From NCBI GenBank assembly GCA_964510165.1, contig CAZEBC010000029.1, forward strand, positions 1-16,900: a stretch of DNA of 16,900 nucleotides, written 5' to 3'. The position numbers were made by a program, and so were the translations under genes. This stretch comes from an uncultured bacterium (GTDB lineage: Bacteria > Abyssobacteria > SURF-5). Positions 1-15,127 of the stretch are shown one piece after another. Every line of letters begins with the position of its first letter. The stretch's first letter is position 1. The notes beneath the pieces are model-generated. The model made no database searches. It saw only the letters and a list, made by a program, of their open reading frames with translations, and was not told the DNA's origin.

Positions 1-32
1 AAAATCGGGCAATTTCACTCGGAAATTGCCCG
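1..32 (-). terminator. Probable intrinsic terminator of the lpxD-like gene
   Basis: Perfect 11-bp inverted repeat CGGGCAATTTC (6-16) / GAAATTGCCCG (22-32) with a 5-nt loop, 37 nt after the stop at 70. Followed on the minus strand by ATTTT, where the window ends. Confidence 0.7.
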
Positions 33-69
33 CATTATCTGATCTGTTTCTGTCGCCTGCAAGAAGCGT

Positions 70-849
70 TCAGCGATCGAGTATATGCCTGAGTTTCTGG
101 AAGCCCTTCACCAGTTCAGGAAGTTCTTGCACGAGCATCTGAATCGATGTCTCCATCTCCAGCGGTCTTGCAGGAACCCCCATGACTGTCTGACCGTCCC
201 CTACCCTTTTCGTGATTCCGGAGAATGGATGTATTGTGACATTGCTTCCAATCTGAATATGATTGACAATGCCCGCCTGTTCACCCACATATGTTTCGGC
301 GCCGATCGTCGTGCTGCCCGCAACGCCGACCCGCGGCCGTATTACGGTCTCTTCTCCAATCTCGACGTTGTGGCCGATCTGAACCAGATTCTCGATGCGC
401 GCGGCTCGCCTTATCCGAGTCACACCGAGTGTGGCTCTGTCAATGGTGACGTTGGCGCCGATGTACACGTCGTCTTCAATCTCCACAGTCCCGAGATGTG
501 GAATCTTGTGGTTTTCGCCCAGGTTGTTGGTGAACCCAAACCCATCGCTTCCAACCACCGAGCCGCTATTTATAATTACGTTTCGGCCAATCCGCACTCT
601 TTCGCGAATGGCAACATGCGGATAAAGCACGGAGTGAGCGCCGATATGAACAAAAGGTCCGATGGAAACATGAGCACCCAGTTCGACTCCATCGTCAATC
701 TGAACTCCGTCATCAATCACTACGAAGGGGCCTATTCTCACATATTCGCCAATGCGGACGTTGCGCCCTATGACGGCGGTAGGGTGAATATATCCGTCGG
801 TTCGGGTCTGGCTTATTTCGCCTAAGACAACCACTGAACTTCTGAGCAT
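70..849 (-). CDS. lpxD: LpxD-like hexapeptide-repeat (left-handed beta-helix) acyltransferase lacking the N-terminal uridine-binding domain
   Basis: Hexapeptide repeats plus LpxD hallmarks [33 protein letters not shown] and [10 protein letters not shown] (catalytic His). Start moved to ATG 849 (MLRSS), which follows GGAGAGG at 854-860. 259 aa. Confidence 0.8.
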
Positions 850-912
850 GTAACCTCTCCTAGACCGGGTAGATTGCGAAAGCCATGAACACACAAGATT
901 TTGCGATTACTA

Positions 913-928
913 AGCAACAATTATGCCA
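913..928 (-). promoter_or_regulatory. sigma54 (-24/-12) promoter for the lpxD-like gene
   Basis: Minus strand reads TGGCATAATTGTTGCT: exact GG-N10-GC spacing and one mismatch to TGGCAC-N5-TTGCW. Lies about 64 nt upstream of ATG 849 and next to a sigma54 activator gene. Confidence 0.85.
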
Positions 929-977
929 CAACTGAAATATAGCGCAAAAAATGGGAGGATATTCCTAAGTGATTATA

Positions 978-990
978 TAACAGTAGGTTG
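978..990 (+). promoter_or_regulatory. Possible IHF-binding site
   Basis: TAACAGTAGGTTG matches WATCARNNNNTTR with one mismatch, in an AT-rich stretch just upstream of the sigma54 promoter. Confidence 0.35.
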
Positions 991-1127
991 CGAAGCAACG
1001 ACCAGCATGGCAATACCAAATGGACCGGTTAAGGATTGAATTCCGAGCGAGCTTTTTGGACCACCGCCATGCCCCGATTAGCAGTCATTTATGTCGTAAC
1101 ATATTTCAAAATAAAAGGTTCTGTAAT

Positions 1128-1143
1128 CGGCCCAAAAGGGCCG
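1128..1143. other. GC-rich hairpin/dyad just after the response-regulator stop (weak terminator or protein-binding site)
   Basis: CGGCCC-AAAA-GGGCCG, a 6-bp stem 7 nt beyond the stop at 1151. No U-tract follows directly. Confidence 0.35.
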
Positions 1144-1150
1144 GTAATCC

Positions 1151-2563
1151 CTAATCTTTTTCAACTTCGTCTTTGTTATGCGCAAGCCCATATTTCTGTG
1201 ACTTGTAACGCATGATCTTGCGCGTCACGCCCAACAATTCGGCAGCCTTCGTCTTATTCCCGCCGGTCCTTTCCAGGGCGTCACGGATGAATGATTTTTC
1301 GATTTCCTCGATTGTCTCGATTAAAGGAAGCCCTCGCTCGGGCAGCTTGAGGTCGTTGAGCACTGACGTGCGGGATTCGGGTCGCTCAAGCAGTCTGGCT
1401 ATCTGAGCGGGGAAATCATCGGTTCCGAGAACATCCGATTTTCCGAGCACCATCGCACGCTCCAACAAGTTTTCCAGCTCGCGCACGTTGCCGGGCCAGT
1501 CATATTCCATAAGGAGCTTAAGCGCTTCGTCGGAAACCGTCTTAATGCTCTTGCCGAGTTCTCGGTTGAATCTCGCGATGCAGTAGTCCGTCAGCAGCGG
1601 TATATCCTCTTTGCGTTCTCGCAGAGGAGGCAGGTGAATCTCGACCACGTTCAACCGGTAATAGAGGTCTTCCCTGAATGTCTTGTCTTCGAGCAACCGT
1701 TCAAGGTTCTTGTTCGTTGCGCCTATGATGCGGACATCAACCTTAATCGTCTGTGCGCCGCCGACCGGCTCGAACTCTTTTTCCTGTAAGACCCTTAGCA
1801 ACTTGCCCTGCAGGGAGACCGACATCAGCGCGAGCTCATCGAGAAAAAGTGTGCCGCCGTCGGCCATTTCAAAGCGGCCATGCCGGTCACTGTGAGCGCC
1901 CGTGAAGGCGCCTTTCACGTGTCCGAACAACTCGCTCTCAAGGAGATGCTCGGCGAGGGCGGCGCAGTTGACCACCACGAACGGTTTGAGATGGCGAGGG
2001 CTCTTGGAATGGATGGCGCGCGCCACAAGTTCCTTTCCCGTGCCGCTTTCGCCGGTCACAAGCACCGTGGTATTGGTTTGCGCCACCTGTTCGATGAGTT
2101 TGAACACACGCTCCATCTTCTCGGACCGTCCGATGAAATTGCTGATATCGAACCTGGAGTCAAGTTCGGTGCGGAGCTGGATATTCTCTTTGATGAGCGA
2201 CCTTTTCTCGATGGCTCGGGACGCCAATATGCGAAGCTCTTCCATGTCGAGCGGCTTGGTGACATAGTTCTCGGCCCCCAGCTTCATGGCCTTCACCGCC
2301 GTCTTCACCTCGCCATACGCGGTCATGATGATGACCGGCAGTTCGGGCGATACTTCCTTGATTCGGCTGAGCAGGTCAATGCCATTCATGCGAGGCATGC
2401 GCATGTCGCAGATAACGAGGTCAACGCGCGACCCCTTAAGCCTTTCGAGAGCCTCCTCGCCGTTCTCGGCGAGCGTCACACCGTGGCCATCCTCTTCAAA
2501 CAGCAGTTGGAGGACCCGGCGCATTCGAGCCTCATCGTCAACTATCAGAATGTTTGCGGGCAT
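1151..2563 (-). CDS. NtrC/AtoC/ZraR-family sigma54-dependent response regulator (REC + AAA+ + Fis-type HTH)
   Basis: Receiver motifs ILIVDDE, ICDMRMP, MTAYG and YVTKP. Walker A GESGTGKE, ESELFGHVKGAFTGA, Walker B TLFLDE, WPGNVRELEN. C-terminal GNKTKAAELLG HTH. Purine-rich RBS (GAGGTAGGGAG) before the ATG. Confidence 0.96.
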   Translation of the reverse strand: MPANILIVDDEARMRRVLQLLFEEDGHGVTLAENGEEALERLKGSRVDLVICDMRMPRMNGIDLLSRIKEVSPELPVIIMTAYGEVKTAVKAMKLGAENYVTKPLDMEELRILASRAIEKRSLIKENIQLRTELDSRFDISNFIGRSEKMERVFKLIEQVAQTNTTVLVTGESGTGKELVARAIHSKSPRHLKPFVVVNCAALAEHLLESELFGHVKGAFTGAHSDRHGRFEMADGGTLFLDELALMSVSLQGKLLRVLQEKEFEPVGGAQTIKVDVRIIGATNKNLERLLEDKTFREDLYYRLNVVEIHLPPLRERKEDIPLLTDYCIARFNRELGKSIKTVSDEALKLLMEYDWPGNVRELENLLERAMVLGKSDVLGTDDFPAQIARLLERPESRTSVLNDLKLPERGLPLIETIEEIEKSFIRDALERTGGNKTKAAELLGVTRKIMRYKSQKYGLAHNKDEVEKD

Positions 2564-2572
2564 CTCCCTACC

Positions 2573-4774
2573 TCATTGCTCTTCCGGACGGGCCGTGGGC
2601 AGCGAGATCACAAATGTCGTTCCCATGCCGGGCGTGCTGCTAACCCTGATGCGCCCGTTATGGTTCTCGACTATTTTATGGACGAGCGAAAGTCCGAGCC
2701 CAACCCCGTCATCCTTTGTTGAAAAGAACGGATCGAATATCCTTGGCAATAGTTCCGGCGCAATGCCCTCCCCCGTGTCCGAAATCACGATATCGACCGC
2801 CTGGTTGCTTTCTTTGGCTTGCGAGCACAGGGCCAACAAGTGAGCACTGCCGGAGGAGGCCTGTACGGCGGAGATTTCTAGAGGCTCTGAGAGCCTCGTT
2901 TCGACTGTGAGCGCGCCTGACCCGTTCATTGCTTGAAAGGCGTTCATGAACAGGTTCAGAAACACCTGATGGCATTGCTCCGAGTCCGCGAGCACGAGGG
3001 GCAGGTTTGGCGCGAGCATCTTCTTGATTGCTATGTCGCCTTGTGCGACTTCTGGAGTAATGAAGGACAGCGTGTGTTCGACGATCGAATTTATGTCGAC
3101 CGGTTCCGGACAGGGCTGGGACGGCCGGGCGAATTGGAGAAAGTTCGTCACAACCCGATTAAGGCGGTCAACTTCCTCGACGATAAAATCCGTCAGCTCG
3201 CGTCTCTTGGAATCGTCCTGGATGCGGTCGCGTAGCATTTCAGCGGAGTTCTTGATGATGCCAAGCGGGTTGCGGATTTCATGGGCGACGCCGGCGGATA
3301 ACTCTCCCAGCGCGGCCAGCCTGTTTCGCCGCTGCATTTCCTGTTCCAATTCTCTGAGTTGTCTGAGCTTTCGCGTCATGATGTTGAAGGCCCGGCCGAG
3401 GTCTCCAATCTCGTCCTTGGATTGCGCGTCGAAATGCTGTTCAAGGTCACCCTCGGAGACCGCCAGCACTTTTCTGTAAAGGACCCTGATTGGCCGCGAG
3501 ATTCCCCGGGAGATTGTGTACCCGAGCATCGTCGCAAAAAGGAAGCCGAACGCAAGTATAACGGGAAAGAAGTGCCACGTGGCGACGGTCGCCGAGAATG
3601 TGTACTTGTGAGGGACGCCGACAAAGATTAACCCGAGTACCTTGCCGCCGTACCCCACGAGGGGCTGGTAGGCCGCGCGATACGGCTCGCCCTTGAGGAG
3701 CGCATGCGCATCGTAATAACGTTGTTTGTCCACGAAAATGCTTTTTTTGATTGCGGACGTCATGGGCAAGTCCTGAATGGCGCCCACAAGCGATTCCTCT
3801 CGCGATTTGAACTCCAGTTCGACTCTCCGGTTCAAGGCCCGGTTTTCTTCCGTGGTTTCGGGCGCGACCGCCCGCGTTTCACCAAAGCTTATCGTTTGGA
3901 TGCGCGAGGCTTCGATGCCTTCAGCGATAAGGGCTGTCTTCACCGCTTCGGCGCGTCTAAGACCAACATGGTAATTATGCTTTTCGGAGCCGCTCGAGTC
4001 GGCGTGTCCCTCGACTATCAGAGTAAGGTCGGGGCGGCTTCGCATGACGGAAGCAACTTCGTGAATCTCCTTGAGCGCGGCCTCCGAAATCTCGGTGCTG
4101 CTTCCCTTGAAGAATATGCTCGAGGGCCCGGCGGGGATTTTCTCGTAGAAAATGCGAATATCGGCGCCGGTCATGATCTCCACATCCTGCGCGAAGCTCT
4201 TGCCGAGGGGATATCCTATCGCAAGCATTCCATACTGGCGTTCCCCATCCGATATGGGCATCACCGCGCCCGCAAGGAGGGTTTGGATTCCATTGACCTC
4301 TGTCTCCATTATCGTTTTTGTCGCCGAGGGAGGCGCTTGAGTCTGCAACAGCGGCGGGCCGGTTCCCGCAACCGGCTGTCCCGTGGGCACCCATAGTCCG
4401 ACCGGGGCCTTAGTGCCCGATGATATGGGAGGGGTAAAGATGTAAGACATCTTTTCCTGTTTGAGAGCATCAGCAAGCCCTGGTTTTTCAAGCGCGGCCT
4501 TTAAACTGCGGACAGCCTGCTCCTCGTAAATGTCTATAACCGAGAGCACTGTGCCGGTGGCGTCCCTGACCTTCCGCTCGATTTGTTTCTCCGTGATTTC
4601 CGCGGTTATGCGGATTACCAGATAGGTGGAAAGAGCGATTGAGATGACGGCGGTCGAGACAAATGCCAGGATGAGCTTGTTCTGGAGACGAGGCTTCAGC
4701 AACTTTTTCTGGGCGGTAAGAAGCTGGCTCTCGGCCAGTTCGTTGACCGTCTTGTCGTCAACGCCTCTTGTCAT
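2573..4774 (-). CDS. Membrane sensor histidine kinase: TM - Cache-like region with inserted OmpA-C-like domain - TM - HAMP - HisKA - HATPase
   Basis: TM1 (LILAFVSTAVISIALSTYLVI) and TM2 (FFPVILAFGFLFATMLGYTI). HAMP (SKDEIGDLGRAFNIM), H-box AHEIRNPL, N-box QVFLNLFMNA, DTGEGI, FDPFFSTK, GLGLS. Start is probably ATG 4774 (17-nt overlap with iorB); GTG 4831 is the alternative. Confidence 0.93.
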   Translation of the reverse strand: MTRGVDDKTVNELAESQLLTAQKKLLKPRLQNKLILAFVSTAVISIALSTYLVIRITAEITEKQIERKVRDATGTVLSVIDIYEEQAVRSLKAALEKPGLADALKQEKMSYIFTPPISSGTKAPVGLWVPTGQPVAGTGPPLLQTQAPPSATKTIMETEVNGIQTLLAGAVMPISDGERQYGMLAIGYPLGKSFAQDVEIMTGADIRIFYEKIPAGPSSIFFKGSSTEISEAALKEIHEVASVMRSRPDLTLIVEGHADSSGSEKHNYHVGLRRAEAVKTALIAEGIEASRIQTISFGETRAVAPETTEENRALNRRVELEFKSREESLVGAIQDLPMTSAIKKSIFVDKQRYYDAHALLKGEPYRAAYQPLVGYGGKVLGLIFVGVPHKYTFSATVATWHFFPVILAFGFLFATMLGYTISRGISRPIRVLYRKVLAVSEGDLEQHFDAQSKDEIGDLGRAFNIMTRKLRQLRELEQEMQRRNRLAALGELSAGVAHEIRNPLGIIKNSAEMLRDRIQDDSKRRELTDFIVEEVDRLNRVVTNFLQFARPSQPCPEPVDINSIVEHTLSFITPEVAQGDIAIKKMLAPNLPLVLADSEQCHQVFLNLFMNAFQAMNGSGALTVETRLSEPLEISAVQASSGSAHLLALCSQAKESNQAVDIVISDTGEGIAPELLPRIFDPFFSTKDDGVGLGLSLVHKIVENHNGRIRVSSTPGMGTTFVISLPTARPEEQ

Positions 4775-5390
4775 TGGCGAGCTCAACTCCCAAGTGGAAA
4801 CACTCAGTATCTTCGGGGCGGCCGTCTTCACGAAGCGACTCGAGCAAATGCGCCTTGCTCACGGGAAGCGCTGCGACGGTTGAAGCTATTCCAAGGCACA
4901 TGGCGTTTATCGCGCGAGAATGGCCGAATCGTTCCCGCGCAATTTGCGTCAGATTCCAGGCATATACGTTGGTGGTGAGCCGCCCCAACATCTGAATCAT
5001 GAGTTTCGTTTCGGGATACGTGTCTCGGCCCAATTTGACGGGAATAGGCGAAAGCGGGAAAGTGTTCAGGATAACTGTCGAGGCCTCATTCAGATAGACT
5101 GCGAGGCGCAGGGCCTCGAGGGGTTCCAGGCCGATCAGCAAATTGGCGGTTCCCGCACACAGCATTGGCGAGCACACGTCCCTGCGTTCGTCCGTTTCCG
5201 TGATTAAGCCGTTGTCGCGCCACTGGTAGCGGATGATGGCTGAAACATGGCCTTCGCGTTGCGCTCCGCCCCTCCTCTCGGAACCACTCACACGGACGCC
5301 CGCTTTCAGACCCGCCTTTTTCAAAAACGTTCCGAGCGTGATGACACCCTGCCCGCCTATGCCCGCCACCAGCGCGTTATAGACTGGCAT
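4758..5390 (-). CDS. iorB: Indolepyruvate:ferredoxin oxidoreductase beta subunit family
   Basis: N-terminal LVAGIGGQGVI, GGAQREGHV and LIGLEPLEALR. ATG 5390 has AGGAGG upstream and lies 2 nt after the iorA stop. 210 aa. Confidence 0.88.
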   Translation of the reverse strand: MPVYNALVAGIGGQGVITLGTFLKKAGLKAGVRVSGSERRGGAQREGHVSAIIRYQWRDNGLITETDERRDVCSPMLCAGTANLLIGLEPLEALRLAVYLNEASTVILNTFPLSPIPVKLGRDTYPETKLMIQMLGRLTTNVYAWNLTQIARERFGHSRAINAMCLGIASTVAALPVSKAHLLESLREDGRPEDTECFHLGVELANDKRR

Positions 5391-5392
5391 GA

Positions 5393-7321
5393 TTACCGAC
5401 CTCCTGCGGCGCGCTTGCCGGTTTTTCGGCTTTCCGGTTCGAAAAGACGAGCGCGCACAATGGCGGAGTTCGGACACACTGTCTTGCACGAGCCGCAGCG
5501 AACACATAGCTCTTCATCGATGTAATAATAGTCACCGTATTCATCGGAGGCTTCCATTATCGCGGGGCAGCCAAACTCCTTGTAGCAGACGCCGCACCTC
5601 TGGCAGCGTTCCCGGACTATGGAGTAGAAGTCGTCGTAAACGGGGGGCACAAACCTGTTGCGCCGATGAGATTGGAGCGCGCATTCGCCTCTCGCTATGA
5701 TCACGCGGAGGCCGCGCCGTGTGAGTTCATCAACGACGGCGGCCCTGAACCTGGCGACGTCAAACACTTCAATAGTCCGTACGCGTTTTGCTCCGAGCGT
5801 CTGCAACAAAGTCTTCAGGTCTATTGCGTCCAGACGCTCGCCGCGCACATTTGTGGTTGTTGTCGGGCTTGGCTGGTGTCCCGTCATGGCGATCCATCGG
5901 TTATCCAAGATGATGAGGAGGACATCCGCATTTGTGGCTGCGGCGTTCTGAAGTCCCTGGAGTCCGGAATGAAAGAACGTAGAGTCGCCCACGAACGCGA
6001 TGATGGGTTTGCCGTCGCTCACGTGGCGGATACCCTGCGCCGCGCTCAGGCCACAATTCATGCAGGTGCACCAATCAGCGGCCTCAAAGGGTGGCAGTGA
6101 GGCCATGGTGTAACACCCGATATCCCCGCCGATGACGGCGTGGTTCTTGGCGGCGGAAACGACCGCATATACCGATGCCCGATGGGGGCATCCGATGCAG
6201 AATGTGGGGATGCGTTGAGGAATCGAAGACGCGATTTCCGAGCCGATTCGCTTCGCTCTTGCGATTTGTTCCGGAATGGCCTTCCGGGATACGCGGCTGA
6301 GGGTCTCGACAACGATGTCGGGACTTGTTTCTCCCGAAGGCGGAATGAGTTCTTTTCCGAGCACTTCGAATCGGAGCTCGAGTTCAAAGGCATGCCGTTT
6401 GAGTTGAAATTCAAGAAAGCCTTCCAGGTCCTCGACAACTACGATTTTCTCGAGTTTCTTCGCGAACTCAAGCAACTGTGACGCGGGAAACGGATACGAC
6501 ATCCCGATCTTGAACACCGGCACGTTGAACAGGCCAAGAATTTCGAGCGCCTCCATCACATACAGATAGTTCACGCCCGATGTCACGATTCCCCACGAGG
6601 CGTTGCCGTGGACTATCTTGTTATATGAACGACTGTCTTCGGACTGAGCCAGGGCATTGATGCGTTCGATACAGGCCTGGTGGTTTCGGACAGCCTGCCC
6701 GAAGAGATTGAAATAGCGTTGGTAGTTCGGCCGGAACTCTCCCCTACCCTGCCGTCGCGTGATCGGCCCAAGACGGAGGTCGCCGATATTGTGGCAGAGA
6801 CGGGAAGCGGCGTTCACGACGACCGGAATGGAGTACTTTTCTGACAACTCGAACGCAGCGAGGGTGAAGTCCTTGGCCTCTTGTATGGTGGCTGGTTCGA
6901 GCAAGGGAAGGTGGGTATGAAGCGAATACCAGCGATCGTCCTGCTCGCCCGTGGAACTGGTGGCGCCCGGATCGGAGCCTATCACGATCACAAGGCCGGC
7001 GTCCACACCGGTATAGCCGAGAAAATGCGCCGGCTCGGCGGCAACGTTCATGCCCACGTGCTTCATGGCGACCATCGAGCGAACACCGGCCCATGAAGCG
7101 CCCATTGCGCCATTCAGGGAGACGTGCTCATTGGCGCTGTACTCCATGTAGAAGCCGGGCAGCTTGTCCTTCAGACTTTCGAGGGTTTGCCCGATCTCGG
7201 TTGCCGGCGTGCCGGGATACATGGAGAAGTAGCCTATCCCGGCTTCAATTCCGGCGCGAGCGATGGCCTCATTGCCCATCGCCAGGATCACGCCGCCATT
7301 ATCAAAAAGCAATGGTTCCAT
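5393..7321 (-). CDS. iorA: Indolepyruvate:ferredoxin oxidoreductase alpha subunit family (TPP-binding, C-terminal 2x[4Fe-4S] ferredoxin domain)
   Basis: MGNEAIARA, YPGTPATEI, MKHVGMNVA, FCIGCPHR, GDIGCY, TPP motif GDSTFFHSG...N, and C-terminal CQRCGVC..GCP and CVRCGSCKTVCP. Confidence 0.93.
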   Translation of the reverse strand: MEPLLFDNGGVILAMGNEAIARAGIEAGIGYFSMYPGTPATEIGQTLESLKDKLPGFYMEYSANEHVSLNGAMGASWAGVRSMVAMKHVGMNVAAEPAHFLGYTGVDAGLVIVIGSDPGATSSTGEQDDRWYSLHTHLPLLEPATIQEAKDFTLAAFELSEKYSIPVVVNAASRLCHNIGDLRLGPITRRQGRGEFRPNYQRYFNLFGQAVRNHQACIERINALAQSEDSRSYNKIVHGNASWGIVTSGVNYLYVMEALEILGLFNVPVFKIGMSYPFPASQLLEFAKKLEKIVVVEDLEGFLEFQLKRHAFELELRFEVLGKELIPPSGETSPDIVVETLSRVSRKAIPEQIARAKRIGSEIASSIPQRIPTFCIGCPHRASVYAVVSAAKNHAVIGGDIGCYTMASLPPFEAADWCTCMNCGLSAAQGIRHVSDGKPIIAFVGDSTFFHSGLQGLQNAAATNADVLLIILDNRWIAMTGHQPSPTTTTNVRGERLDAIDLKTLLQTLGAKRVRTIEVFDVARFRAAVVDELTRRGLRVIIARGECALQSHRRNRFVPPVYDDFYSIVRERCQRCGVCYKEFGCPAIMEASDEYGDYYYIDEELCVRCGSCKTVCPNSAIVRARLFEPESRKTGKRAAGGR

Positions 7322-7976
7322 TGAGCACTCTGTCGAGGTTTGTCACGACCAGGTTGACACCGGCCGCGCCAGCGTCCTCGGCCTCGCGCACGGTTACTGC
7401 CATATCCGGCGCGCATTCCTCTGTGACGGAGAGGATAATGGGTTTGTCCGTTTCACGGCGGAGTTTTCGGACGGTTTCAACCGAGCGAACGAAGAAGGTG
7501 TCCACGCCAGCGCGGAGTAATTTTCGCGCGCGCGCAATATCGGCGGAGGTAACGCCCCCGATGTATGCGCCAACGGTCCATTTGACCGAAGCAAGCGAGG
7601 AAGGTATGTCATCTGAGAAGGAGTTCTTAAGTGCGAGCAACAAGCTCAACGAATCCATCTCATACACCGGCTTTGCGGACGGGAAGGCCGTGAGGATCGG
7701 ATGGGCGCCGTCTGAGAGGACAAGGTTGGTGAATCCGACGCAGGCCGCAGTAAGCAGGCGCGAGTGAAGGGCGATTCGATTCCTGTCGCGACAAGAAATC
7801 TTCAGGAAGATTTCCTTGGCGATGCGCTCGCGCGACAGATTTGCGAGGAAGATGGGATCGATACCGCCGTTCTCATCGAGCACTATTGCGGAAAACGAGT
7901 TCAATCTCAGGAGAGCGGCGATGAAATCGGTTATGTCGAGAGCGATTGGAGTTTGTATTTCCAGGAATCTCTTCAT
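7302..7976 (-). CDS. Shortened, divergent methylenetetrahydrofolate reductase (MetF)-like protein
   Basis: ISCRDRNRIALHSRLL, AKPVYEMDSLSLL and KLLRAGVD resemble MetF motifs, and it follows a metV-like gene. Start taken as ATG 7976 (MKRFLE), 14 nt after the upstream stop. 224 aa. Confidence 0.7.
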   Translation of the reverse strand: MKRFLEIQTPIALDITDFIAALLRLNSFSAIVLDENGGIDPIFLANLSRERIAKEIFLKISCRDRNRIALHSRLLTAACVGFTNLVLSDGAHPILTAFPSAKPVYEMDSLSLLLALKNSFSDDIPSSLASVKWTVGAYIGGVTSADIARARKLLRAGVDTFFVRSVETVRKLRRETDKPIILSVTEECAPDMAVTVREAEDAGAAGVNLVVTNLDRVLNGTIAF

Positions 7977-7990
7977 GGCTTGAACAGCTC

Positions 7991-8623
7991 TTATCTTTGA
8001 AGTTTGCGAGGGAGAACCCGTTTGGACCAATTGAGCGCGGAGAATTCAACATCGAGTTCAGGCAGACCGAGCGCTTCCCTACGGTTCGTAATGGTCACCC
8101 ACACGCATTCCTGATCAGGATTGAGGTCACATTTCTCGCCGGCTTTTTCTGAACACGGACCGTTGAGAATTCCCTTCGGGCATCGGGTTCGAGGACAAAT
8201 TGCCGCTGTGTGATTCAGGACGCATTCGCCGCATGCGATGCAGTTTTCAAGATAACTGTTGGAATGGATGACCGTGCCGGGAAACAGGGAATTCAACCCG
8301 GCAAGGCACGGTTTGTCAAGGGAGTCGGCGAGGGCTTGCACCCCGGTGCCGCATGCGAGCATCAGGACCGCCTCCACCTGTTCCAGCCGTTCCGTGACTC
8401 GCCGCAATTCGCGGGCGAGGACGCGCTGGTCGCAAGGTTCGTCGATCTGGAACGTCAAGACGATTTCCATGTCGCCGAGTTTGGCAGCGAGGTCTTCGAC
8501 TTGTTTCGTGCCGCCGGCCTGGCAGACGGCGGCGCATCCGCCGCATCCGATAATCGCCACCTTATGGTAGCGCGACAGAGAACTCTTGATTTCTTCTAAG
8601 GGCTTTTGCACAGATACTATCAT
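7991..8623 (-). CDS. metV: MetV-like Cys-rich protein (methylene-THF reductase small subunit / MTHFR C-terminal-like domain)
   Basis: GCGGCAAVCQAGG, EPCD, LACGTGVQ and ENCIACGEC...ICPRTRCPKGILNGPC...KCDLNPDQECVW, the Cys pattern of MetV proteins. Directly upstream of a metF-like gene. Confidence 0.82.
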   Translation of the reverse strand: MIVSVQKPLEEIKSSLSRYHKVAIIGCGGCAAVCQAGGTKQVEDLAAKLGDMEIVLTFQIDEPCDQRVLARELRRVTERLEQVEAVLMLACGTGVQALADSLDKPCLAGLNSLFPGTVIHSNSYLENCIACGECVLNHTAAICPRTRCPKGILNGPCSEKAGEKCDLNPDQECVWVTITNRREALGLPELDVEFSALNWSKRVLPRKLQR

Positions 8624-8642
8624 GATGGACTAACGACCTTCC

Positions 8643-9338
8643 TTATTCGAGCAAGCCGAACAGAGTACGGACCTTGTCGATGAAGTATTCCGGTTTTTCT
8701 TCCTCGACCCGATTGATGCGTCCCTGTGGCACAACCCACTCATCTTCCCTGTACACGGATGTTTTTGTGACCTCGAAGACGGAGCTTTTTAGTTGCCATG
8801 TCTCGCCGTCGAACTCGTAAACATCCTTCTGGACGCCCTGGTCCCGGATGAAATCGGTATCGTCGCTGGCTTTGCCTTGCGACCTGGAGTACCGTGTCTG
8901 GTAGCGGACCTTGCGGTACTTTGCCTCGCCGACGTATGAAGGGCTGAAGGAGTCTGTCTTTGTCACGGTGACTTCGACCGCATCGGGCTCTGGGAACTCA
9001 TCGTAGTATTTGTAATACAGTTTGGCGTCGCCGGAAGAAATCGCGATTACCTGGTTCTTGAACTGTTCCTGATTCTCCTGCAAATAGGAAATTTGCCCGG
9101 CGAGTTTCGTTTCGAGCGCTTGCTTGACTTTGTCATCGGAGACCTCTCCCCGGACCAGAGGGTCGGCACCGCCAGGCCCCCGCACCTTGTTGGGGGAGGA
9201 GCATCCCGCGAGCAATCCGACAAAAAGGAGGGCCGCGATGGCCCTCAGCGCGGTCTTAATTGCCGGCCGCGCGAATGAATTCGTACCCACGGAGTGTGCG
9301 AATGAATTCGCACTTACAGAACTGAGCGACAGTCTCAT
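8643..9338 (-). CDS. Hypothetical lipoprotein
   Basis: ATG 9338 follows AGGGAG and lies 11 nt after the kinase stop. Hydrophobic stretch AIAALLFVGLLAG then Cys (lipobox LAG-C). Hydrophilic, Tyr-rich mature region with no family recognised. 231 aa. Confidence 0.75.
   Translation of the reverse strand: MRLSLSSVSANSFAHSVGTNSFARPAIKTALRAIAALLFVGLLAGCSSPNKVRGPGGADPLVRGEVSDDKVKQALETKLAGQISYLQENQEQFKNQVIAISSGDAKLYYKYYDEFPEPDAVEVTVTKTDSFSPSYVGEAKYRKVRYQTRYSRSQGKASDDTDFIRDQGVQKDVYEFDGETWQLKSSVFEVTKTSVYREDEWVVPQGRINRVEEEKPEYFIDKVRTLFGLLE
9269..9317 (-). repeat. Two direct copies (27-nt period) of a 22-nt REP-like palindromic element
   Basis: Minus strand: GTAAGTGCGAATTCATTCGCAC (9317-9296; perfect GTGCGAAT/ATTCGCAC stem) and GTGGGTACGAATTCATTCGCGC (9290-9269). 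Both have the GT(A/G)(A/G)-tetranucleotide-plus-palindrome layout. Confidence 0.7.
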
Positions 9339-9349
9339 TGTTGTCTCCC

Positions 9350-10357
9350 TTACGACAAATGTTCTATTTTCAAACCGTCGGTTATGATCTTGAATGGGAG
9401 CACTTGAGCGCCCGCGTCCGTGAGGGCCGCCGCGACCCGGGCCCTTTCTTCGGGTCGTATGCAGGTAATCATGCAGCCGCCTCCTCCGGCGCCACAGAGT
9501 TTGTTGGCCAAGGCGCCTGCATGCAGGGCGGCCCGCATTATTTTTTCCACGCTGTCGGTCGTGACTCCCTCGCCAAGCGTGCGCCGCCTTTGCCATTCAG
9601 TGTCGAGCAGACGGGCAAATTCGTCCCAGTCCTTTTTCACGAGGCAGGAGCGCATCGAGAGTGCGATTTGCTTGATGTGTTTCATGCCTTCGCGAGTTTC
9701 GGGATTACCCTCGATGTAGTTACGCATCATTGTCCAATTGGTGGCTCCTGAGAATCTGGGGGCGCCGGTAAAGGACAAGATAAGCCTCTTTTCGAGTTCA
9801 TCCACGGCGGTATTGTCGAGCAGCTTTTCCCGTTTGCCTCCCCGGACCCCGAACCACAGAGCGCTCACTCCTCCGTAAACGGCGGCGTAATAATCCTGTT
9901 TGCCGGTGGGAACCCTTATGCACTGGGCCTCGAGGTCGGCGGCGACATCAATCAGCTCGTCGCGCGAATACGGGGAATTGCTCAGGGCGTTTAAGGCTGC
10001 CAGAACCGCTATCAATAAAGAGGAAGAAGCCCCCAGTCCCGAACCCTTGATGACTCCATTCTGCGTGGTGATGTTCAATCCGTTGGGGAGGTTGAAGAAC
10101 TTGACGGCTCTTGCGACAATCCCAAGTTCGCCGTCGCAACTGAGCGAATCCATATGGTCGCACTTTTCCTCTATTCGCAGGTCCAGCGAGGACAGGCAGA
10201 CCCTGGCATCAGCGCGCAGTTCGATTGTTGCGGTGCAGAACATGTCGATGGCACAATTGAGTGTCAGTCCCCCCTCCTCAAAGAGATAGATCGGATAGAG
10301 GTCAAGCGTGCCTCCGGCGAGGTCTATCCGGGTTGGCGCCGTGGCCCGAACCTTCAT
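9350..10357 (-). CDS. GHMP-family sugar kinase, HddA (D-glycero-D-manno-heptose 7-phosphate kinase)-like
   Basis: APTRIDLAGGTLD, GSGLGASS, GKQDYYAAVYGG and KLCGAGGGG. Start set at ATG 10357 (MKVRATAP), preceded by GGGA. 335 aa. Confidence 0.85.
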   Translation of the reverse strand: MKVRATAPTRIDLAGGTLDLYPIYLFEEGGLTLNCAIDMFCTATIELRADARVCLSSLDLRIEEKCDHMDSLSCDGELGIVARAVKFFNLPNGLNITTQNGVIKGSGLGASSSLLIAVLAALNALSNSPYSRDELIDVAADLEAQCIRVPTGKQDYYAAVYGGVSALWFGVRGGKREKLLDNTAVDELEKRLILSFTGAPRFSGATNWTMMRNYIEGNPETREGMKHIKQIALSMRSCLVKKDWDEFARLLDTEWQRRRTLGEGVTTDSVEKIMRAALHAGALANKLCGAGGGGCMITCIRPEERARVAAALTDAGAQVLPFKIITDGLKIEHLS

Positions 10358-10402
10358 GAGCTGAATTCCCGTTTTCTTTGATGGATACAAAGCGAACAAG
10401 CG

Positions 10403-10420
10403 ATGATTTGCTTAAATCAT
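10403..10420. promoter_or_regulatory. Operator-like palindrome overlapping the -10 element and predicted start site
   Basis: ATGATTT-GCTT-AAATCAT: perfect 7-bp inverted repeat with a 4-nt spacer. Confidence 0.5.
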
Positions 10421-10444
10421 ACACGAATGCGGGGATTATTTCAA
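10416..10444 (-). promoter_or_regulatory. sigma70-type promoter for the kinase-to-response-regulator run
   Basis: Minus strand TTGAAA (10444-10439), 17-nt spacer, TATGAT (10421-10416), in an AT-rich intergenic patch. Confidence 0.7.
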
Positions 10445-10476
10445 CAAAAAGTGGCCGAAAAGGGCCGGCCGAGATC

Positions 10477-10564
10477 AGTGACTAAAGTGAGCTAAAGTTA
10501 CTAAAATGCAGACGACGCGGGGTGAGGCGAGTCTCGGACAGTCAGATCGGACAGGGCGGACGAG
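10477..10564. repeat. Short imperfect intergenic tandem repeats
   Basis: AGTGACTAA / AGTGAGCTAA / AGTTACTAA (10477-10504), TCGGACAG twice (10534, 10547) and GCGGACGAG (10556). Confidence 0.5.
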
Positions 10565-10582
10565 ACGGGCGGGGTTGTGGGT

Positions 10583-12031
10583 TCAGGGCTTTGGAGGAAC
10601 GGGATTGTGGCAGGCGAAGAAGTGGGCTGGTGTGTGTTCAATCAGGCCGGGGACAACGCTCTTGCAGACAGGCAAAGCATTGAAGCAGCGGGGATGGAAG
10701 CTGCAGCCGGGCGGCGGATTGATCGGGGAGGGCACGTCGCCGGGCAAGAGTATTCGCTTGCGTCTGTGCTTGGGATCGGGTATTGGAATCGCCGACATGA
10801 GAGCGACCGTATAGGGATGGCGAGGGCTGCGGTACAGTTCCTCGCTTGAGGCGAGTTCCGCGATTTTGCCGAGGTACATGACTGCGACCCGGTGGCTTAT
10901 ATACTCAACGACTCTGAGGTCATGCGCGATGAAAAGGTAGGAAATGCCGTATTCCTCTTGAAGGTCTTTGAGGAGGTTGACGATCTGAGCCTGGATGGAG
11001 ACGTCGAGCGCGGATACAGGTTCGTCGCAGACGATGAAGCGGGGCTCGAGCGCGAGAGCACGCGCGATGCCGATGCGCTGTCTTTGTCCGCCGCTGAATT
11101 CATGCGGATAGCGGTCGAGGAATTCTCTGGACAATCCGACTCGTTCGAGCAATTGAGCCACTCGTTCGCGGCGTTCTCTGCCGTCGGCGATTTTGTGGAC
11201 GGAGACGGCTTCGCCGACAATATTCTCGATGTTCATCCGAGGATTGAGTGAGCCAAATGGGTCCTGGAAAATTATCTGCATCTCCTTACGCATGGCCCTC
11301 ATTTCGCTTTCGGAGAGGAGATCGAGAGGCAGACCGTCGTAAAAGACGCGGCCGCTGGTGGGCGGGATGAGGCGGAGGATGGTTCTGCCGAGGGTGGTCT
11401 TGCCGCAGCCGCTTTCTCCGACGAGTCCGAGCGTCTCGCCCGGCTTGACGGTGAGGTAGATGTCGTCGACCGCTTTGACGTGTTCCTTCACTCTGGCGAA
11501 GACGCCTGCGCGGACGGGGAAATATTTCTTGAGTCGTTCGACGCGGAGCAGAAGGTTATCCATCGGTTCGAGCAGATGCTGCTGTTCGTAGTGTCCTCTT
11601 ATCATTTCAACGGTTATGGTGGGGCGTCGGCACGGCCGTCGCAGGAGGACATAAAGAAGCTGGAAGAAGAGCCACGGGACGATAGCCGGGAGGGCGGTTA
11701 TGAGGGCGAGGGTGGGCCAGAGCTTTGTGTTCATCTCGCGGCTCCGGCAATCGTCGTATGTGTAGAGGGCGATGTAGGCTGGGAGCGAGAGCACGGCGCA
11801 CAGCGCGGGCCAAAAGACGGGATTGTACTCTCGTTCGATTGTTTTATGCCGCGCGAGATAACAAAGCAGGCCGTTAAGGAATCCCATGAGAGTGCCAATG
11901 ATGAAGGCGCCGAGCGCCCATTTGACGGCAGGTCTGCGGTTTTTGCGGGCGTCGCCGTAGACCCATAGGGCTAGGCCGAGCGCGAGGGCCGAGTTTGCGG
12001 CGGCAATCCAGCCTATCAGAGTGAAGTCCAT
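10583..12031 (-). CDS. oppF: Oligopeptide/dipeptide ABC transporter ATPase (OppF/AppF type) with N-terminal membrane extension
   Basis: [34 protein letters not shown] and C-terminal HPYT...GCSFHPRC. The ATG is 4 nt after the oppD stop. The first ~156 aa are hydrophobic and not ABC-like. Confidence 0.92.
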
Positions 12032-12035
12032 GCGT

Positions 12036-12998
12036 TCACGCTTTCCTGCATCTGACGAGGTGTCCCGGTTCGACGGTTATGAGTTCGGATTCGAGGCGTT
12101 CGCATTCGCGGTCGCTCAGGTCACATCGCGGGTGGAAGCGACAGCCGGGCGGATAGCCTGCCGGATCGGGGACGGCGCCCTCAATGGCACGGAGTTGTCC
12201 TTCTTCGTCACCCAGCCTCGGGAGCGAGTTGAGCAGGCCGATTGTGTACGGGTGTTTGGGATTCTCGAAGAGTCGAGCGGTTGTGGCGTACTCGACTATC
12301 TGCCCCGCGTACATGACTGCGACGTCGTCGGTTGACTCGGCGACGACGCCAAGGTCATGAGTTATCAGCAATGTGGACATGTTGAATTCCCGCCGGAGGT
12401 CATATATGAGCTCGAGTATTTGTGCCTGGATGGTGACGTCGAGCGCGGTGGTCGGCTCGTCGGCGATAAGCAGTTTGGGGTTGCACGATATTGCCATGGC
12501 GATCATCGCCCTTTGCTTCATACCTCCCGAAAGCTGATGGGGATAATCGCTGTAGCGCTGTTCGGGCGAGAAAATCTTGACTTTGCGGAGGAGTTCGATG
12601 GCGATTGCCTTCGCTTCTGAGCGCGAGACTTTACGGTGGAGCCTGATTGCCTCCGCTATTTGGTAGCCGATGGTGAAGACGGGGTTAAGCGAGGTCATAG
12701 GCTCCTGAAAGATCATCGCGATATCGTTGCCACGGACGGAGCGCATGGCCGATTCCGAGAGCTTCAGCAAGTCGCGTCCTTCGAAGATAATTTCGCCGTT
12801 GAGGATTCTGCCGGGCGGCGAGGGGATAAGCCTGAGTATGGAGAGCGCGGTCACGCTTTTGCCGCATCCGCTCTCGCCGACCAGTCCGAGCGTTCTTCCC
12901 GTTTCGAGGGAGAAACTGACGCCATCGACGGCGCGTACCACTTTGGAGTCGCTGTAGAAATATGTTTTCAGGTCGCGCACTTCGATGAGGGTGGTCAT
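12036..12998 (-). CDS. oppD: Oligopeptide/dipeptide ABC transporter ATPase (OppD/DppD type)
   Basis: [38 protein letters not shown] and HPYT...[12 protein letters not shown] overlap with the oppC stop. Confidence 0.95.
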
Positions 12999-14110
12999 TG
13001 GGCCTTTTCCTCAAAAGCGAGTTTGGGGTCGAGCGCGTCGCGGAGGCCGTCACCCAGGAAATTGAAGGACATCACGGCCACGAAAATGAAGAGGCCGGGC
13101 AGCAGAATCCAGGGGTGGAACTCGATCTGTGCGATATTCATGGCTTCGCTGAGGAGGTTGCCCCAACTGGCCTGCGGTTCCTGAATGCCGACCCCGATGA
13201 GGCTGAGCGCCGACTCACCCAGTATATAGCCGGGGATGGATAAAGTCACGGCGACGATCACGTACGAGAGAGTGTTGGGGAGGATGTGGCGGACAATGAT
13301 ACGGAGAGAACCTTCGCCGGAAGCTCGCGCGGCGGTCACGAATTCCTTTTCCCTGATGGAGAGGACCATGCCGCGTATGACCCGTGCCAGACTGGCCCAG
13401 CCGATGAAGCTCATGATCAGAACGATCATCAGGTAAATCTGGATTGATGACAATCCCGGAGGAAAGGCAGCCCTGAGCGCAAGCATGAGGTAGAAGCCCG
13501 GGATCATCATGACCATTTCGCAGAGACGCATGAGTACGTTGTCCACTCTCCCGCCGAAATAACCCGCTATTCCTCCTACCAGCATCCCGATGGAGAAAGA
13601 AATGGCGACTCCGACGAAGCCGACCGAGAGGGAAACGCGGCTGCCGTCGAGGATTCGGGAGAACAGGTCTCGCCCGCGGTAATCGGCTCCAAGCAGGTAG
13701 ATACGGGCGGGCTTGTCCACGCCGAAGAGGCGTGTTTTCATTGGTACGAGGCCCAGGAGGCGGTGCTCCTCGCCCTCGACGAACAGCTTCAGAGGGTATC
13801 GCTTTGATTTATCCTGGACATACACACGGTTGTAGTATTCGTCGAATGTGTACGAATACTCGTAGACGTAGGGCCGGCGGAAGTTGCCCTCCTGATCGAA
13901 GAAGTAAATGCGCATCGGCGGGCAATACGAGAGGTGGCGGCGCTCGCTATCGTAATTGTAAGGCGCGATGAAGTCGGCGAAAATGGCCAACGCGTAGAGG
14001 AAGCCGAGCACCCACAGGCTGAAAATGGCCAGCTTGTGGCGGCGGAGGCGTTTGAGCGCGAGCCGCGCCTGCGACGCGGGAGCGCTTCCGTTTCCGTTTT
14101 CGTTTGTCAT
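12995..14110 (-). CDS. oppC: Oligopeptide ABC transporter permease OppC
   Basis: [24 protein letters not shown]-like loop [16 protein letters not shown] and [14 protein letters not shown]. Start ATG 14110 overlaps the oppB stop (ATGA). Confidence 0.93.
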
Positions 14111-15075: not shown

Positions 15076-15103
15076 TGCATCACCGGCACACACACATGAT
15101 ACA

Positions 15104-15127
15104 GCCCACGAGGAACTGCTCGTGGGC
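15104..15127. other. Intercistronic stem-loop between oppA and oppB
   Basis: GCCCACGAG-GAACTG-CTCGTGGGC, a perfect 9-bp stem with no U-tract. Confidence 0.55.

Follow-up and report, generated by a model that had tools for sequence, protein, structure and literature searches.

A candidate sigma-54 two-component module with an OmpA-like insert in its sensor kinase and a truncated LpxD paralog as predicted target in an Abyssubacteria-type bacterium

Introduction

Lipid A synthesis is known to be controlled mainly post-translationally, at the level of LpxC, according to a review that also lists NtrYX and ChvGI as two-component systems controlling lpxC transcription in alphaproteobacteria (PMC12444477). 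A more specific case comes from Desulfovibrio vulgaris, where the NtrC-type sigma-54 response regulator DVU2934 has lpxC, with its sigma-54 promoter, as its single mapped target (Rajeev et al., 2011, PMC3333781; listed in PMC4641369) and where its binding site is a palindrome located some 136 bp upstream (PMC3333781). At the level of the acyltransferase itself, Francisella has the temperature-switched paralogs LpxD1 and LpxD2 (PMC3545938). The idea behind such a pair is that an additional LpxD serves to remodel lipid A under certain conditions. Dedicated transcriptional switches for lipid A synthesis are barely described, and the module presented here bears on that gap.

To our knowledge, few cell-wall sensors are known in diderms. 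Two cell-wall-sensing kinases serve as points of reference: WalK of Bacillus subtilis, with an extracellular Cache domain (PMC7299342), and PghK of Shewanella, with a CBM9 sensor (bioRxiv 10.1101/2023.05.05.539549).

Here we analyse the first 16,900 nucleotides of contig CAZEBC010000029.1 (assembly GCA_964510165.1), called the window below. The best explanation of the locus as a whole, to which we give a probability of about 0.6, is that Abyssubacteria-type bacteria carry it as a dedicated regulatory module of three genes. Its parts, their conservation, the predicted promoter and the OmpA-like insert of the kinase are documented below from sequence and comparison.

Results

All parts of the locus lie on the minus strand. 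The sensor histidine kinase (2573-4774; 733 aa) is composed of TM1, a periplasmic sensor, TM2, HAMP, HisKA and HATPase_c, with HAMP, HisKA, HATPase_c and OmpA domains above their Pfam cut-offs and the HisKA histidine, His498, encoded by nt 3281-3283. We place its start at the ATG at 4774; the frame is also open from a GTG at 4831, but the aligned orthologs start at the ATG-equivalent position. A gap of 9 nt, already reported in the preliminary description of this DNA, separates the kinase from an NtrC-family response regulator and sigma-54 enhancer-binding protein of 470 aa (1151-2563; Pfam Response_reg, Sigma54_activat, AAA_lid_14 and HTH_8). This regulator contains a receiver domain (PF00072, 121.3 bits, residues 5-111) with D53, the putative phospho-acceptor judging from its position, within DLVICDM, an AAA+ sigma-54 interaction domain (PF00158, 246.3 bits) whose GAFTGA is intact as previously noted (residues 218-223, nt 1895-1912), and a C-terminal Fis-type HTH (PF02954, 52.1 bits, residues 417-458). 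It exceeds the NCBIfam cut-off of no named equivalog (AtoC, NtrC, ZraR, GlrR and others), the best score being 520.5 bits against 714 for AtoC.

The linkage of kinase, regulator and target, for which a synteny search had been suggested, is indeed conserved in eight other genomes of the phylum (seven of nine same-family genomes and one same-class genome). The three genes occur in this order in all seven loci long enough to hold them, and regulator and target are adjacent in the eighth, a short contig. A regulator ortholog is present in 9 of the 11 genomes of the phylum, our own included.

Between regulator and target lies a -24/-12 box, TGGCATAATTGTTGCT (913-928), which agrees exactly, as had been proposed in slightly weaker terms, with the sigma-54 consensus TGGCAY-N5-TTGCW in its GG and GC elements and its fixed spacing. 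It is the sole exact match in the window, where 0.03 are expected and 5 of 200 shuffled sequences contain at least one; when one mismatch is allowed, 0.89 matches are expected and the window alone is then not significant. In the alignment of promoter and spacer from nine Abyssubacteria-type loci, the box occupies the aligned position in all nine, with GG and TTGC invariant, in a spacer that has diverged to 46% mean column identity; eight loci fit the strict pattern and the ninth carries TGGCGCACTCCTTGCG at the aligned position. Transcription would start near 902. The genome encodes two rpoN matches above the TIGR02395 cut-off and, in its 4.17 Mb, holds 33 strict sigma-54 boxes, about 7 being expected from base composition.

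Upstream of the box we could identify three conserved blocks, and the repeats that had been suggested there proved real, both falling within such blocks. Block A, just past the stop codon of the regulator gene, is a perfect palindrome, CGGCCCTTTTGGGCCG (1128-1143), conserved in all nine aligned loci with the invariant positions G19 G20 C22 ... G29 C31 C32; in its strict form it occurs once in the genome. It is a candidate upstream activator site, or instead the terminator stem of the regulator gene. Block B (1095-1123; alignment columns 82-108) is an inverted repeat, yGTAAY-N17-rTTAYr, which is weak in the window and clear in relatives as TGTAAC...GTTACA; 92 loose genome-wide matches to it are uninformative. 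Block C, TGGTCCAAAAAGCTCG (1048-1063; columns 141-157), lies about 80 bp from block A, is related to it as another copy of the CGGNCN-W4-NGNYCG type and is likewise a candidate activator site. The motif GGNCNWWWWNGNYCG has five matches in the window against 0.34 expected, a count that is biased because the motif was derived from the same sites; three of the matches fall at blocks A and C (two sites, one read on both strands). Among the 190 relaxed boxes of the genome, two have the A/C motif 40-320 nt upstream, namely the 913-928 promoter, with two sites, and one weak box. An IHF-like site was also claimed for this region, and here the preliminary description was not borne out: 929-1150 contains no match to WATCAANNNNTTR with up to one mismatch.

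A second phylum, one with small genomes, has a related module. Its kinases match both sensor halves of our kinase (E 1e-11 to 1e-20) and lack the OmpA insert; an OmpA-less relative scores 36.3 for sCache_3_3, above the cut-off. In our own genome no other gene carries these sensor halves, the best other match having an E of 0.24. Four of the five second-phylum loci with a visible downstream gene show the order kinase, NtrC-type regulator, sigma-54 box and full-length lpxD. In these (L051, L052, L094 and L096), the regulator is 52-54% identical to ours and the promoter is likewise a -24/-12 box, TGGCACGGAAATTGCT or close variants, whereas the upstream palindromes differ from the blocks described above. 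The LpxD-family target is 45-46% identical to the window's protein but full-length. In the two genomes that were checked, no other LpxD match passes the family cut-off; one of them has a second, weak match of 75 bits. In L051, lpxD is followed by a SurA/PpiD-like gene. One genome of this phylum has the two-component genes and sigma-54 box in front of a rhomboid gene instead of lpxD, so targets can change. As the same sensor without OmpA precedes regulator, sigma-54 box and full-length lpxD in this phylum, the core circuit seems to predate the insert. The regulator tree gives no supported sister grouping of the two module types, which form a polytomy with paralogs from our genome (support 32).

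The wiring first proposed for this DNA, from kinase through NtrC-type activator and sigma-54 promoter to a hexapeptide acyltransferase, is well supported as a prediction by the conserved gene order, the conserved box, the presence of rpoN and the second-phylum module. We consider it highly probable from these comparisons that 913-928 is a sigma-54-dependent promoter driven by the adjacent NtrC-type regulator. With 29 sigma-54 activators and so many relaxed boxes in the genome, the neighbourhood could in principle be coincidental for regulation, the regulator acting elsewhere and another activator serving 913-928; DVU2934 itself targets a non-neighbour, DVU2917, 17 locus numbers away. This is very improbable, however, as regulator, promoter and target have stayed adjacent in the eight other genomes of the phylum at a target identity of 51-68%, the adjacency recurs in a second phylum, and within the genome only this promoter carries the conserved upstream blocks.

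The periplasmic sensor region of the kinase (about residues 56-399; 3578-4609) is predicted by an AF2 model (mean pLDDT 78.2, pTM 0.62) and fold searches to have a Cache/PDC-type fold, split by an insert. The model aligns with the single-Cache structure 8py0_B (Z 12.8, rmsd 4.0, 140 of 157 residues, spanning model residues 1-341), with CitA (Z 8.9-9.3; 9.3 for 8bgb) and with double-Cache entries (Z 8-9). The sCache_3_3 profile gives 27.8 bits for this kinase, just under the Pfam cut-off of 28.8, and the Cache motifs LGKSFAQD and LLKGEPYR are invariant among its orthologs.

The insert itself (about residues 216-323; 3806-4129) is an OmpA-like domain of the peptidoglycan-binding type, with 66.8 bits for PF00691 against a cut-off of 27.2. 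Foldseek retrieved OprF, OmpA and Pal (E 2e-10), and VIA fold comparison gave Z of 17-18 and rmsd of 1.4-3.8 over 105-121 aligned residues (1.8 over 108 for 4g4v_A). Its motifs EGHxD...G...N...RRA and NRRVE align to OprF and Acinetobacter baumannii OmpA, EGHADSSG...LRRAEAV aligning with EGHTDNTG...LARANSV of 3td3. D259 and R274 are invariant in eight orthologs and correspond to the conserved Asp and Arg which, from work on A. baumannii OmpA, we take to be the residues that hold the diaminopimelate carboxylate. We found this insert only in the Abyssubacteria-type clade.

It had been suggested that cell-wall status is relayed to the target gene. The OmpA-like domain stands; the relay is not established, as the insert is clade-specific and OmpA-less relatives show the same wiring to lpxD. 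Peptidoglycan binding is therefore not needed for the basic circuit, and the insert may add to it, tune it or merely anchor the kinase. Tentatively, and at less than even odds, we suggest from the sequence comparisons that peptidoglycan or muropeptides enter the signal through the insert, which would then be more than an anchor. An alternative that we also hold at less than even odds keeps the same wiring and makes the insert only a tether that positions the kinase at the cell wall; the true signal would be a small molecule bound in the pocket of the Cache domain, as it would be in the relatives without OmpA. The second-phylum sensors, with the same halves, fit such a tether, as do the well-conserved Cache portions and the anchoring role of the OmpA-like domains of MotB, Pal, TagL and TssL, all fold matches of the insert. 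The invariance of the peptidoglycan-contact-type residues (D259, R274 and NRRVE in 8 of 8 aligned orthologs) fits anchoring and sensing equally; the position of the insert within the sensor fold, and not at one of its ends, is well suited to passing binding on to the sensor.

The predicted target gene (70-849) most likely starts at the ATG at 849, behind GGAGAGG (854-860), and encodes a 259-aa truncated LpxD paralog with a left-handed beta-helix, a C-terminal helix and a catalytic histidine, His160, according to NCBIfam and PDB alignment. The gene, earlier designated lpxD-like, does not encode a normal LpxD: of the LpxD model with its 345 positions the protein matches no more than 98-339, and the N-terminal domain is missing. 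It exceeds the cut-off of the broader subfamily NF002060 (259.3 bits against 207) and stays just below that of the LpxD equivalog TIGR01853 (238.2 against 242.5, over model positions 91-323 only). The PDB LpxD structure 2iu8 is matched with an E of 4e-48 over chain residues 127-360; His160 aligns with the catalytic His247 of Chlamydia trachomatis LpxD and is invariant, alongside a GSDGFGF motif, in 35 sequences. The N-terminal uridine-binding domain, PF04613, is absent from the protein and from the 38 closest clusters, has left no remnant upstream of the gene and occurs nowhere free-standing in the genome, whose one match lies within the canonical LpxD. Such a truncation was found only in the Abyssubacteria-type clade. 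The full lpx pathway is encoded elsewhere in the genome, with a full-length lpxD in a normal bamA-skp-lpx cluster that also carries a Gfo/Idh/MocA gene.

Downstream, the terminator noted earlier could be confirmed as a hairpin with an 11-bp stem (6-32) followed by AUUUU (RNA fold of 1-75, -23.2 kcal/mol, z -2.72). The U-tail is truncated by the end of the contig at base 1; a simple terminator scan did not call this hairpin. A hairpin with a T-run occupies the equivalent place in four of seven relatives by script and in a fifth by eye, L038 having none, and the next operon in relatives has its own TTGACA-N17-TATAxT promoter. The lpxD-like gene is predicted to be monocistronic.

Without the UDP-binding domain and with a score below the LpxD equivalog cut-off, this target has an uncertain role in lipid A synthesis. 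That the 259-aa protein acts on a lipid A-type substrate is, judging from its relationships, close to an even bet, slightly on the lower side. It could instead not be an LpxD-type lipid A enzyme at all, and either acylate another acceptor (for example a non-UDP or 3-amino sugar, in keeping with its LpxA-like size and layout) or form mixed trimers modulating the housekeeping LpxD, a reading that we hold at somewhat less than even odds. Enzymes of the LpxD family form trimers in which active sites are shared. The missing PF04613, the TIGR01853 score and the low identity to the LpxD of the same genome (33-35%) would suit this alternative, as would the Gfo/Idh/MocA gene of the canonical cluster, which presumably resembles the GnnA step toward 3-amino sugars. 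However, LpxDs are by far the best matches of the protein (E 5e-77 against 1e-25 for LpxA) and the short clade is nested within the main LpxD radiation; the invariant histidine and GSDGFGF would favour an active enzyme over a pure regulator. In the same tree the short clade is not sister to the full-length LpxDs linked to two-component systems (support 92/68 for the grouping that excludes them).

Discussion

Within the three-gene module that we favour, we infer the phosphotransfer, the regulator-bound block, the signal and the acyltransferase substrate along the following chain. The inner-membrane histidine kinase would read a periplasmic signal through a Cache-type domain with an inserted OmpA-like peptidoglycan-binding domain and phosphorylate the adjacent NtrC-family regulator at D53. 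The phosphorylated regulator may then bind the conserved sites 130-240 bp upstream and activate the sigma-54 promoter at 913-928, which would drive a single gene, encoding the truncated LpxD paralog as an acyl-ACP-type beta-helix acyltransferase. The most likely output would be that lipid A, or an amino-sugar lipid of the envelope related to it, is remodelled under certain conditions, in addition to the work of the housekeeping lpx pathway. Taken with the OmpA-less relatives, whose wiring leads to the sole full-length lpxD of the two genomes checked, the module suggests that little-studied phyla have repeatedly placed lipid A acyltransferases under the control of sigma-54 two-component systems.

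One can go further and imagine that, through the insert, the Cache sensor came to bind peptidoglycan or free DAP-type muropeptides directly as its signal, the wall state setting a dedicated sigma-54 switch through which an LpxD devoid of the UDP-binding domain re-acylates an outer-membrane lipid; such a circuit would have evolved from an older one of kinase, regulator and lpxD through the gain of a wall-binding module and the shortening of the enzyme. We regard this as unlikely, but if true it would represent a hard-wired transcriptional link between two envelope layers. A kinase whose sensor fold includes a peptidoglycan-binding domain would make a compact candidate cell-wall sensor for diderms, and an LpxD that naturally lacks its N-terminal part but keeps its active site offers a ready-made test of the role of the uridine-binding domain in substrate choice.

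The view that this is not a described system holds only in part. The literature searched contains no description of an OmpA-in-sensor kinase or of a truncated LpxD; a published precedent exists for a sigma-54 two-component regulator that targets one lipid A gene, namely DVU2934 with lpxC (PMC3333781). Like the window's regulator, DVU2934 is a two-component sigma-54 activator with GAFTGA, and its one mapped target is a lipid A gene, but this target is the non-adjacent lpxC and not an adjacent lpxD paralog, and the operon there also holds an HD-GYP regulator, no OmpA-containing kinase being described (PMC3333781). By eye, the DVU2934 motif GTGTGCAGAACACAC is nearer to the TGTGGT-N6-ACCACA sites of the second phylum than to blocks A and C, and its GTGTG-N5-CACAC site is absent from the window's conserved blocks. 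The regulons of NtrYX and ChvGI comprise dozens of genes and are not specific (PMC12444477), whereas the present module looks single-target. As in WalK and PghK, an extracytoplasmic domain of a membrane kinase is proposed to monitor the state of peptidoglycan or its fragments; here, however, the putative binding module is OmpA-like and sits inside the Cache fold, and the predicted output is a lipid A-type enzyme under sigma-54 instead of hydrolases or a beta-lactamase. The paralog shares beta-helix, catalytic histidine and C-terminal helix with LpxD, but differs from it, and from LpxD1 and LpxD2 of Francisella, in lacking the uridine-binding domain and scoring below the TIGR01853 cut-off, and its switch would be transcriptional through sigma-54. 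Compared with these systems, the module appears to be a lineage-specific twist on a rarely described regulation of outer-membrane lipid synthesis.

Organization and conservation of the locus

All genes of the window (1-16,900), which forms the start of its contig in a 4.17-Mb draft genome that is 97% complete, lie on the minus strand. The histidine kinase gene (from its ATG at 4774 to 2573) is followed after 9 nt by the gene of an NtrC-type response regulator (2563-1151), then by a 301-nt spacer and by the gene of a 259-aa hexapeptide-repeat protein (849-70), the putative target. The 9-nt gap agrees with the preliminary description, in which a peptidoglycan-binding kinase and an NtrC-type activator were proposed to drive an LpxD-like acyltransferase gene from a sigma-54 promoter. 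The regulator consists of a receiver, a sigma-54 AAA+ domain, a lid and a Fis-type HTH, and its GAFTGA loop (residues 218-223) is indeed intact. It falls short of every named equivalog, AtoC coming closest (520 bits vs. a cut-off of 714).

Records of close relatives are mostly labelled Candidatus Abyssubacteria or Abyssobacteria, and a few Poribacteria, Hydrogenedentota or Lindowbacteria. Across the 11 genomes of our phylum comparison, orthologs of the short target (51-68% identity, open frames of 274-329 aa) are present in seven of nine genomes of the same family and in the single genome of the same class (G010); none was found in G003 or G008, which are 77% and 95% complete, respectively. 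The regulator has the same distribution. Among the eight loci compared, where order was scored wherever the contig was long enough, seven keep the order kinase-regulator-target, and the eighth is a 3.3-kb contig carrying regulator and target.

The target appears to be monocistronic. Downstream of it, RNA folding supports the terminator noted previously: a hairpin at 32-6 with an 11-bp stem followed by AUUUU, where the contig ends. A simple terminator scan listed nothing at 1-35 because the contig end cuts the terminator tail. A hairpin with a T-run was found by script 3' of the target in four of seven relatives (loci L035, L036, L037 and L039) and by eye in L040; the script found none in L038, and the downstream gap in G010 is only 21 nt. 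A gene for a PF18894 metallopeptidase-like protein lies downstream of the target in all five loci scanned, including the same-class genome (e.g. L035:5376-7751), and is followed by MoxR AAA+ ATPase and then VWA genes in the three family-level loci scanned for them. In family-level relatives this operon has its own strongly conserved promoter, TTGACA-N17-TATAxT (TGTGTATAxT). In the genome studied here, the PF18894, MoxR and VWA genes start at the end of a 3.3-kb contig (C287), a position that fits a contig break at base 1 of the window.

Upstream of the kinase, a 2-oxoacid:ferredoxin oxidoreductase gene pair (5393-7321 and 4758-5507) is separated from the kinase ATG by a 15-nt gap, and one transcript may cover both this pair and the kinase and regulator genes. 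Synteny of the oxidoreductase genes with the kinase holds in eight family-level loci, up to the end of the contig in L038, and not in G010. Further upstream, a 317-aa frame (8643-9596) has no Pfam or NCBIfam match, and the sole match of a 242-aa frame (7302-8030), to the MTHFR portion of a bifunctional enzyme, is weak; a DUF5981 (MTHFR C-terminal) gene adjoins both frames.

The predicted sigma-54 promoter and its upstream blocks

The -24/-12 box TGGCATAATTGTTGCT is present at 913-928 as first described. It matches TGGCAY-N5-TTGCW with zero mismatches, for which 0.03 occurrences are expected in the window, and five of 200 shuffled sequences contained one. With one mismatch allowed, the expectation rises to 0.89 and a box would not be significant from the window alone; the case therefore rests on its exactness, position and conservation. 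Alignment of nine spacers gave a mean column identity of 46%, with few conserved islands remaining. In the box island, GG and TTGC are invariant across the nine loci, eight of which fit the strict pattern, the G010 sequence being TGGCGCACTCCTTGCG. An IHF-like site, also proposed for this spacer, was not recovered: no WATCAANNNNTTR match (the usual consensus) with up to one mismatch occurs in 929-1150. Frames in 850-1150 are of chance size only, and an Rfam search of 1-5000 returned zero matches at E values up to 1. Overall, this genome carries two full-length rpoN genes, both over the cut-off (C50:16896-18302, 459.5 bits; C20:3791-5182, 449.1 bits), 29 genes for sigma-54 activators, and 33 strict -24/-12 boxes vs. 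about 7 expected from composition. Five sequencing runs, from three studies, are listed for the organism, and none of them is RNA.

Three further islands lie upstream of the box in the alignment: block A (CGGCCCTTTTGGGCCG, 1128-1143), directly after the regulator stop codon, block B (1095-1123), an inverted repeat of the type TGTAAC-N17-GTTACA that is weak in the window, and block C (CGGNCN-AAAT-TGNTCG, 1048-1063). The strict palindrome of block A occurs once genome-wide, and a looser form at three sites; this uniqueness rules out a widespread repeat or recurrent terminator. A similar sequence at 10453-10467 belongs to an ordinary terminator, complete with T-run. Two of 190 relaxed sigma-54 boxes, that of this promoter and one weak box, are preceded by an A/C-type motif at a distance of 40-320 nt. 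Inverted repeats resembling block B gave 92 loose matches genome-wide and are thus uninformative. Blocks A and C, about 80 bp apart, are the first candidates for regulator binding; alternatively, block A could be a terminator stem.

A kinase sensor with an OmpA-like domain

The kinase combines two membrane helices and a periplasmic region of about 345 residues with HAMP, HisKA and HATPase_c domains. The periplasmic region was modelled from 34 sequences (mean pLDDT 78.2, pTM 0.62). Model residues 157-264 match the peptidoglycan-binding domains of Pal, OmpA and OprF with Z scores of 17-18 (4g4v_A: rmsd 1.8 over 108 residues), and single-Cache sensors align to the remainder of the model, on either side of this domain (8py0_B: Z 12.8, rmsd 4.0, 140 aligned residues, model range 1-341; CitA: Z 9.3). 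As the Cache matches flank the OmpA match, the model shows the OmpA-like domain as an insert within a Cache/PDC-type sensor, whose host fold would be a single or a double Cache. The motifs EGHxD...RRA and NRRVE of the kinase align with OprF and Acinetobacter baumannii OmpA; D259 and R274, which we take to be the residues holding diaminopimelate, are invariant among eight aligned orthologs. The insert may sense wall material, or may merely anchor the sensor.

With the periplasmic region as query, a search of 5.8 billion proteins scored the 8000 candidates that shared most words and listed 120 clusters. The best 38 of these 120 combine OmpA with HAMP/HisKA, and those that are named all come from the Abyssubacteria-type clade; from the 39th down, the listed clusters are non-kinases matched by the OmpA part alone.

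The target is an N-terminally truncated LpxD paralog

The target matches LpxD models from position ~91-98 onward only, over the cut-off for NF002060 (259.3 bits) and just under it for TIGR01853 (238.2 vs. 242.5), and the PF04613 domain is absent from the protein. It aligns with residues 127-360 of the Chlamydia trachomatis LpxD chain (E 4e-48), the catalytic His of which corresponds to His160; this residue and GSDGFGF are invariant across 35 sequences. The enzyme is now LpxA-like in size and layout. A search upstream of the target for a remnant of the LpxD N-terminal domain, in the window and six relatives, found none (best E 1.1). A split gene was rejected: the sole PF04613 domain in the genome lies within the canonical LpxD, and no free-standing copy exists. 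In a search of the same design (8000 candidates sharing most words scored, 120 clusters listed), the best 38 of the 120 clusters are proteins of 242-282 aa without PF04613 and with 55-69% identity to the target. Listed clusters below these are full-length LpxDs of at most 53% identity, save four short entries, each either flagged as partial or located on a short contig.

The housekeeping lpx cluster lies on contig C14 and contains bamA, two skp-like genes, a full LpxD of 343 aa (33-35% identical to the target), a 676-aa frame, a Gfo/Idh/MocA oxidoreductase gene and lpxB. The target therefore represents an additional paralog in truncated form. The 676-aa single frame (L084:4699-6729), from which lpxB is separated by the Gfo/Idh/MocA gene, contains LpxC, FabA-like (FabZ) and LpxA domains and is a possible triple fusion. 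The short forms make up a monophyletic clade (100/98) of the LpxD tree, apart from the divergent housekeeping LpxDs of Abyssubacteria. The same-class genome G010 has four LpxD-family matches on its contigs C40 and C19 (the short form, a second that passes the cut-off, a third that narrowly misses it and a weak fourth), so that LpxD paralogy is not uniform across the class. The substrate of the truncated enzyme may be a lipid A precursor, used without a uridine clamp, or another amino sugar, or the enzyme may work in mixed trimers.

A related circuit in a second phylum

Two sensor peptide patterns also matched loci in unclassified MAGs with small genomes (L051 and L052). Their kinases match both sensor halves without residues ~212-347, the OmpA insert, and score over the cut-off for sCache_3_3. 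Downstream come the gene of an NtrC-type regulator with 52-54% identity, TGTGGT-N6-ACCACA palindromes, a box TGGCACGGAAATTGCT and a full-length lpxD, the sole match over the LpxD cut-off in each genome; in L051 a SurA/PpiD-like gene follows. The kinase is matched in nine of 13 genomes of this phylum, and lpxD stands behind a sigma-54 box in four of the five loci with a visible downstream gene (L051, L052, L094, L096). At the fifth locus (L095:3018-3842, genome G044), a rhomboid protease gene takes the place of lpxD behind the kinase-regulator pair and a box TGGCACATATATTGCT. Between promoter and lpxD start codon, inspection by eye showed a conserved hairpin, GGGCAGAG...CTCTGCCC (L051:9040-9140, L052:7085-7170, L096:3890-3940), which may serve in attenuation or transcript stability. 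A further hit, L053, is to a Hydrogenedentota record and is weak and partial.

The sensor halves of the window kinase match those of the second-phylum kinases with E values of 1e-11 to 1e-20 and have no other relative in their own genome (best E 0.24). Taken together, these observations favour shared ancestry for the kinase and for the whole arrangement. The trees neither confirm nor exclude this: that of the regulator is a polytomy with paralogs from the same genome, in which the orthology of the two module types is not resolved, and that of LpxD does not resolve the short clade as sister to the kinase-linked LpxDs. Under a common origin, the circuit would be older than its Abyssubacteria form, and the Abyssubacteria line would have gained the OmpA insert and lost the N-terminal domain of the enzyme.

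Comparison with known systems

We propose that the kinase would act through the regulator and the sigma-54 promoter on the truncated LpxD, as a single-output switch that would adjust envelope lipid acylation. The wiring of kinase, regulator, promoter and target is the strong part of this mechanism; the signal read by the kinase and the substrate of the enzyme are what we infer. By title or abstract, none of the papers found on sigma-54 with lpxD deals with such a circuit, and neither lpx, lipid A, OmpA nor acyltransferase is mentioned by Francke et al. 2011 (PMC3162934). Cell-wall reading has been proposed for kinases such as PghK, with a CBM9 module (bioRxiv 10.1101/2023.05.05.539549), and WalK (PMC7299342). 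No paper was found that describes a kinase whose sensor holds an OmpA-like insert, and none of the papers listed combined an OmpA domain with at least two of sensor kinase, Cache domain and insertion. Likewise, no paper was found on an N-terminally truncated LpxD, and the description of Abyssubacteria (PMC6121073) mentions none of the circuit parts. Two parts of the circuit are thus undescribed, the OmpA-like insert in the kinase sensor and the truncated LpxD.

According to a 2025 review, lipid A regulation is mostly post-translational, at LpxC, and the transcriptional two-component inputs covered there are the broad NtrYX and ChvGI regulons only (PMC12444477). The sigma-54 response regulator DVU2934 of Desulfovibrio vulgaris, also listed in PMC4641369, binds a single target by DAP-chip, lpxC, where its palindromic site lies at -136; orthologs are noted elsewhere, and in Syntrophobacter an lpxC adjoins the operon of the ortholog (PMC3333781). 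The finding of the preliminary description is real, better supported than a single window could show, and less unprecedented than was first thought, given DVU2934 and lpxC: the circuit is a variant, specific to its lineage, of the control of lipid A genes by sigma-54 two-component systems.
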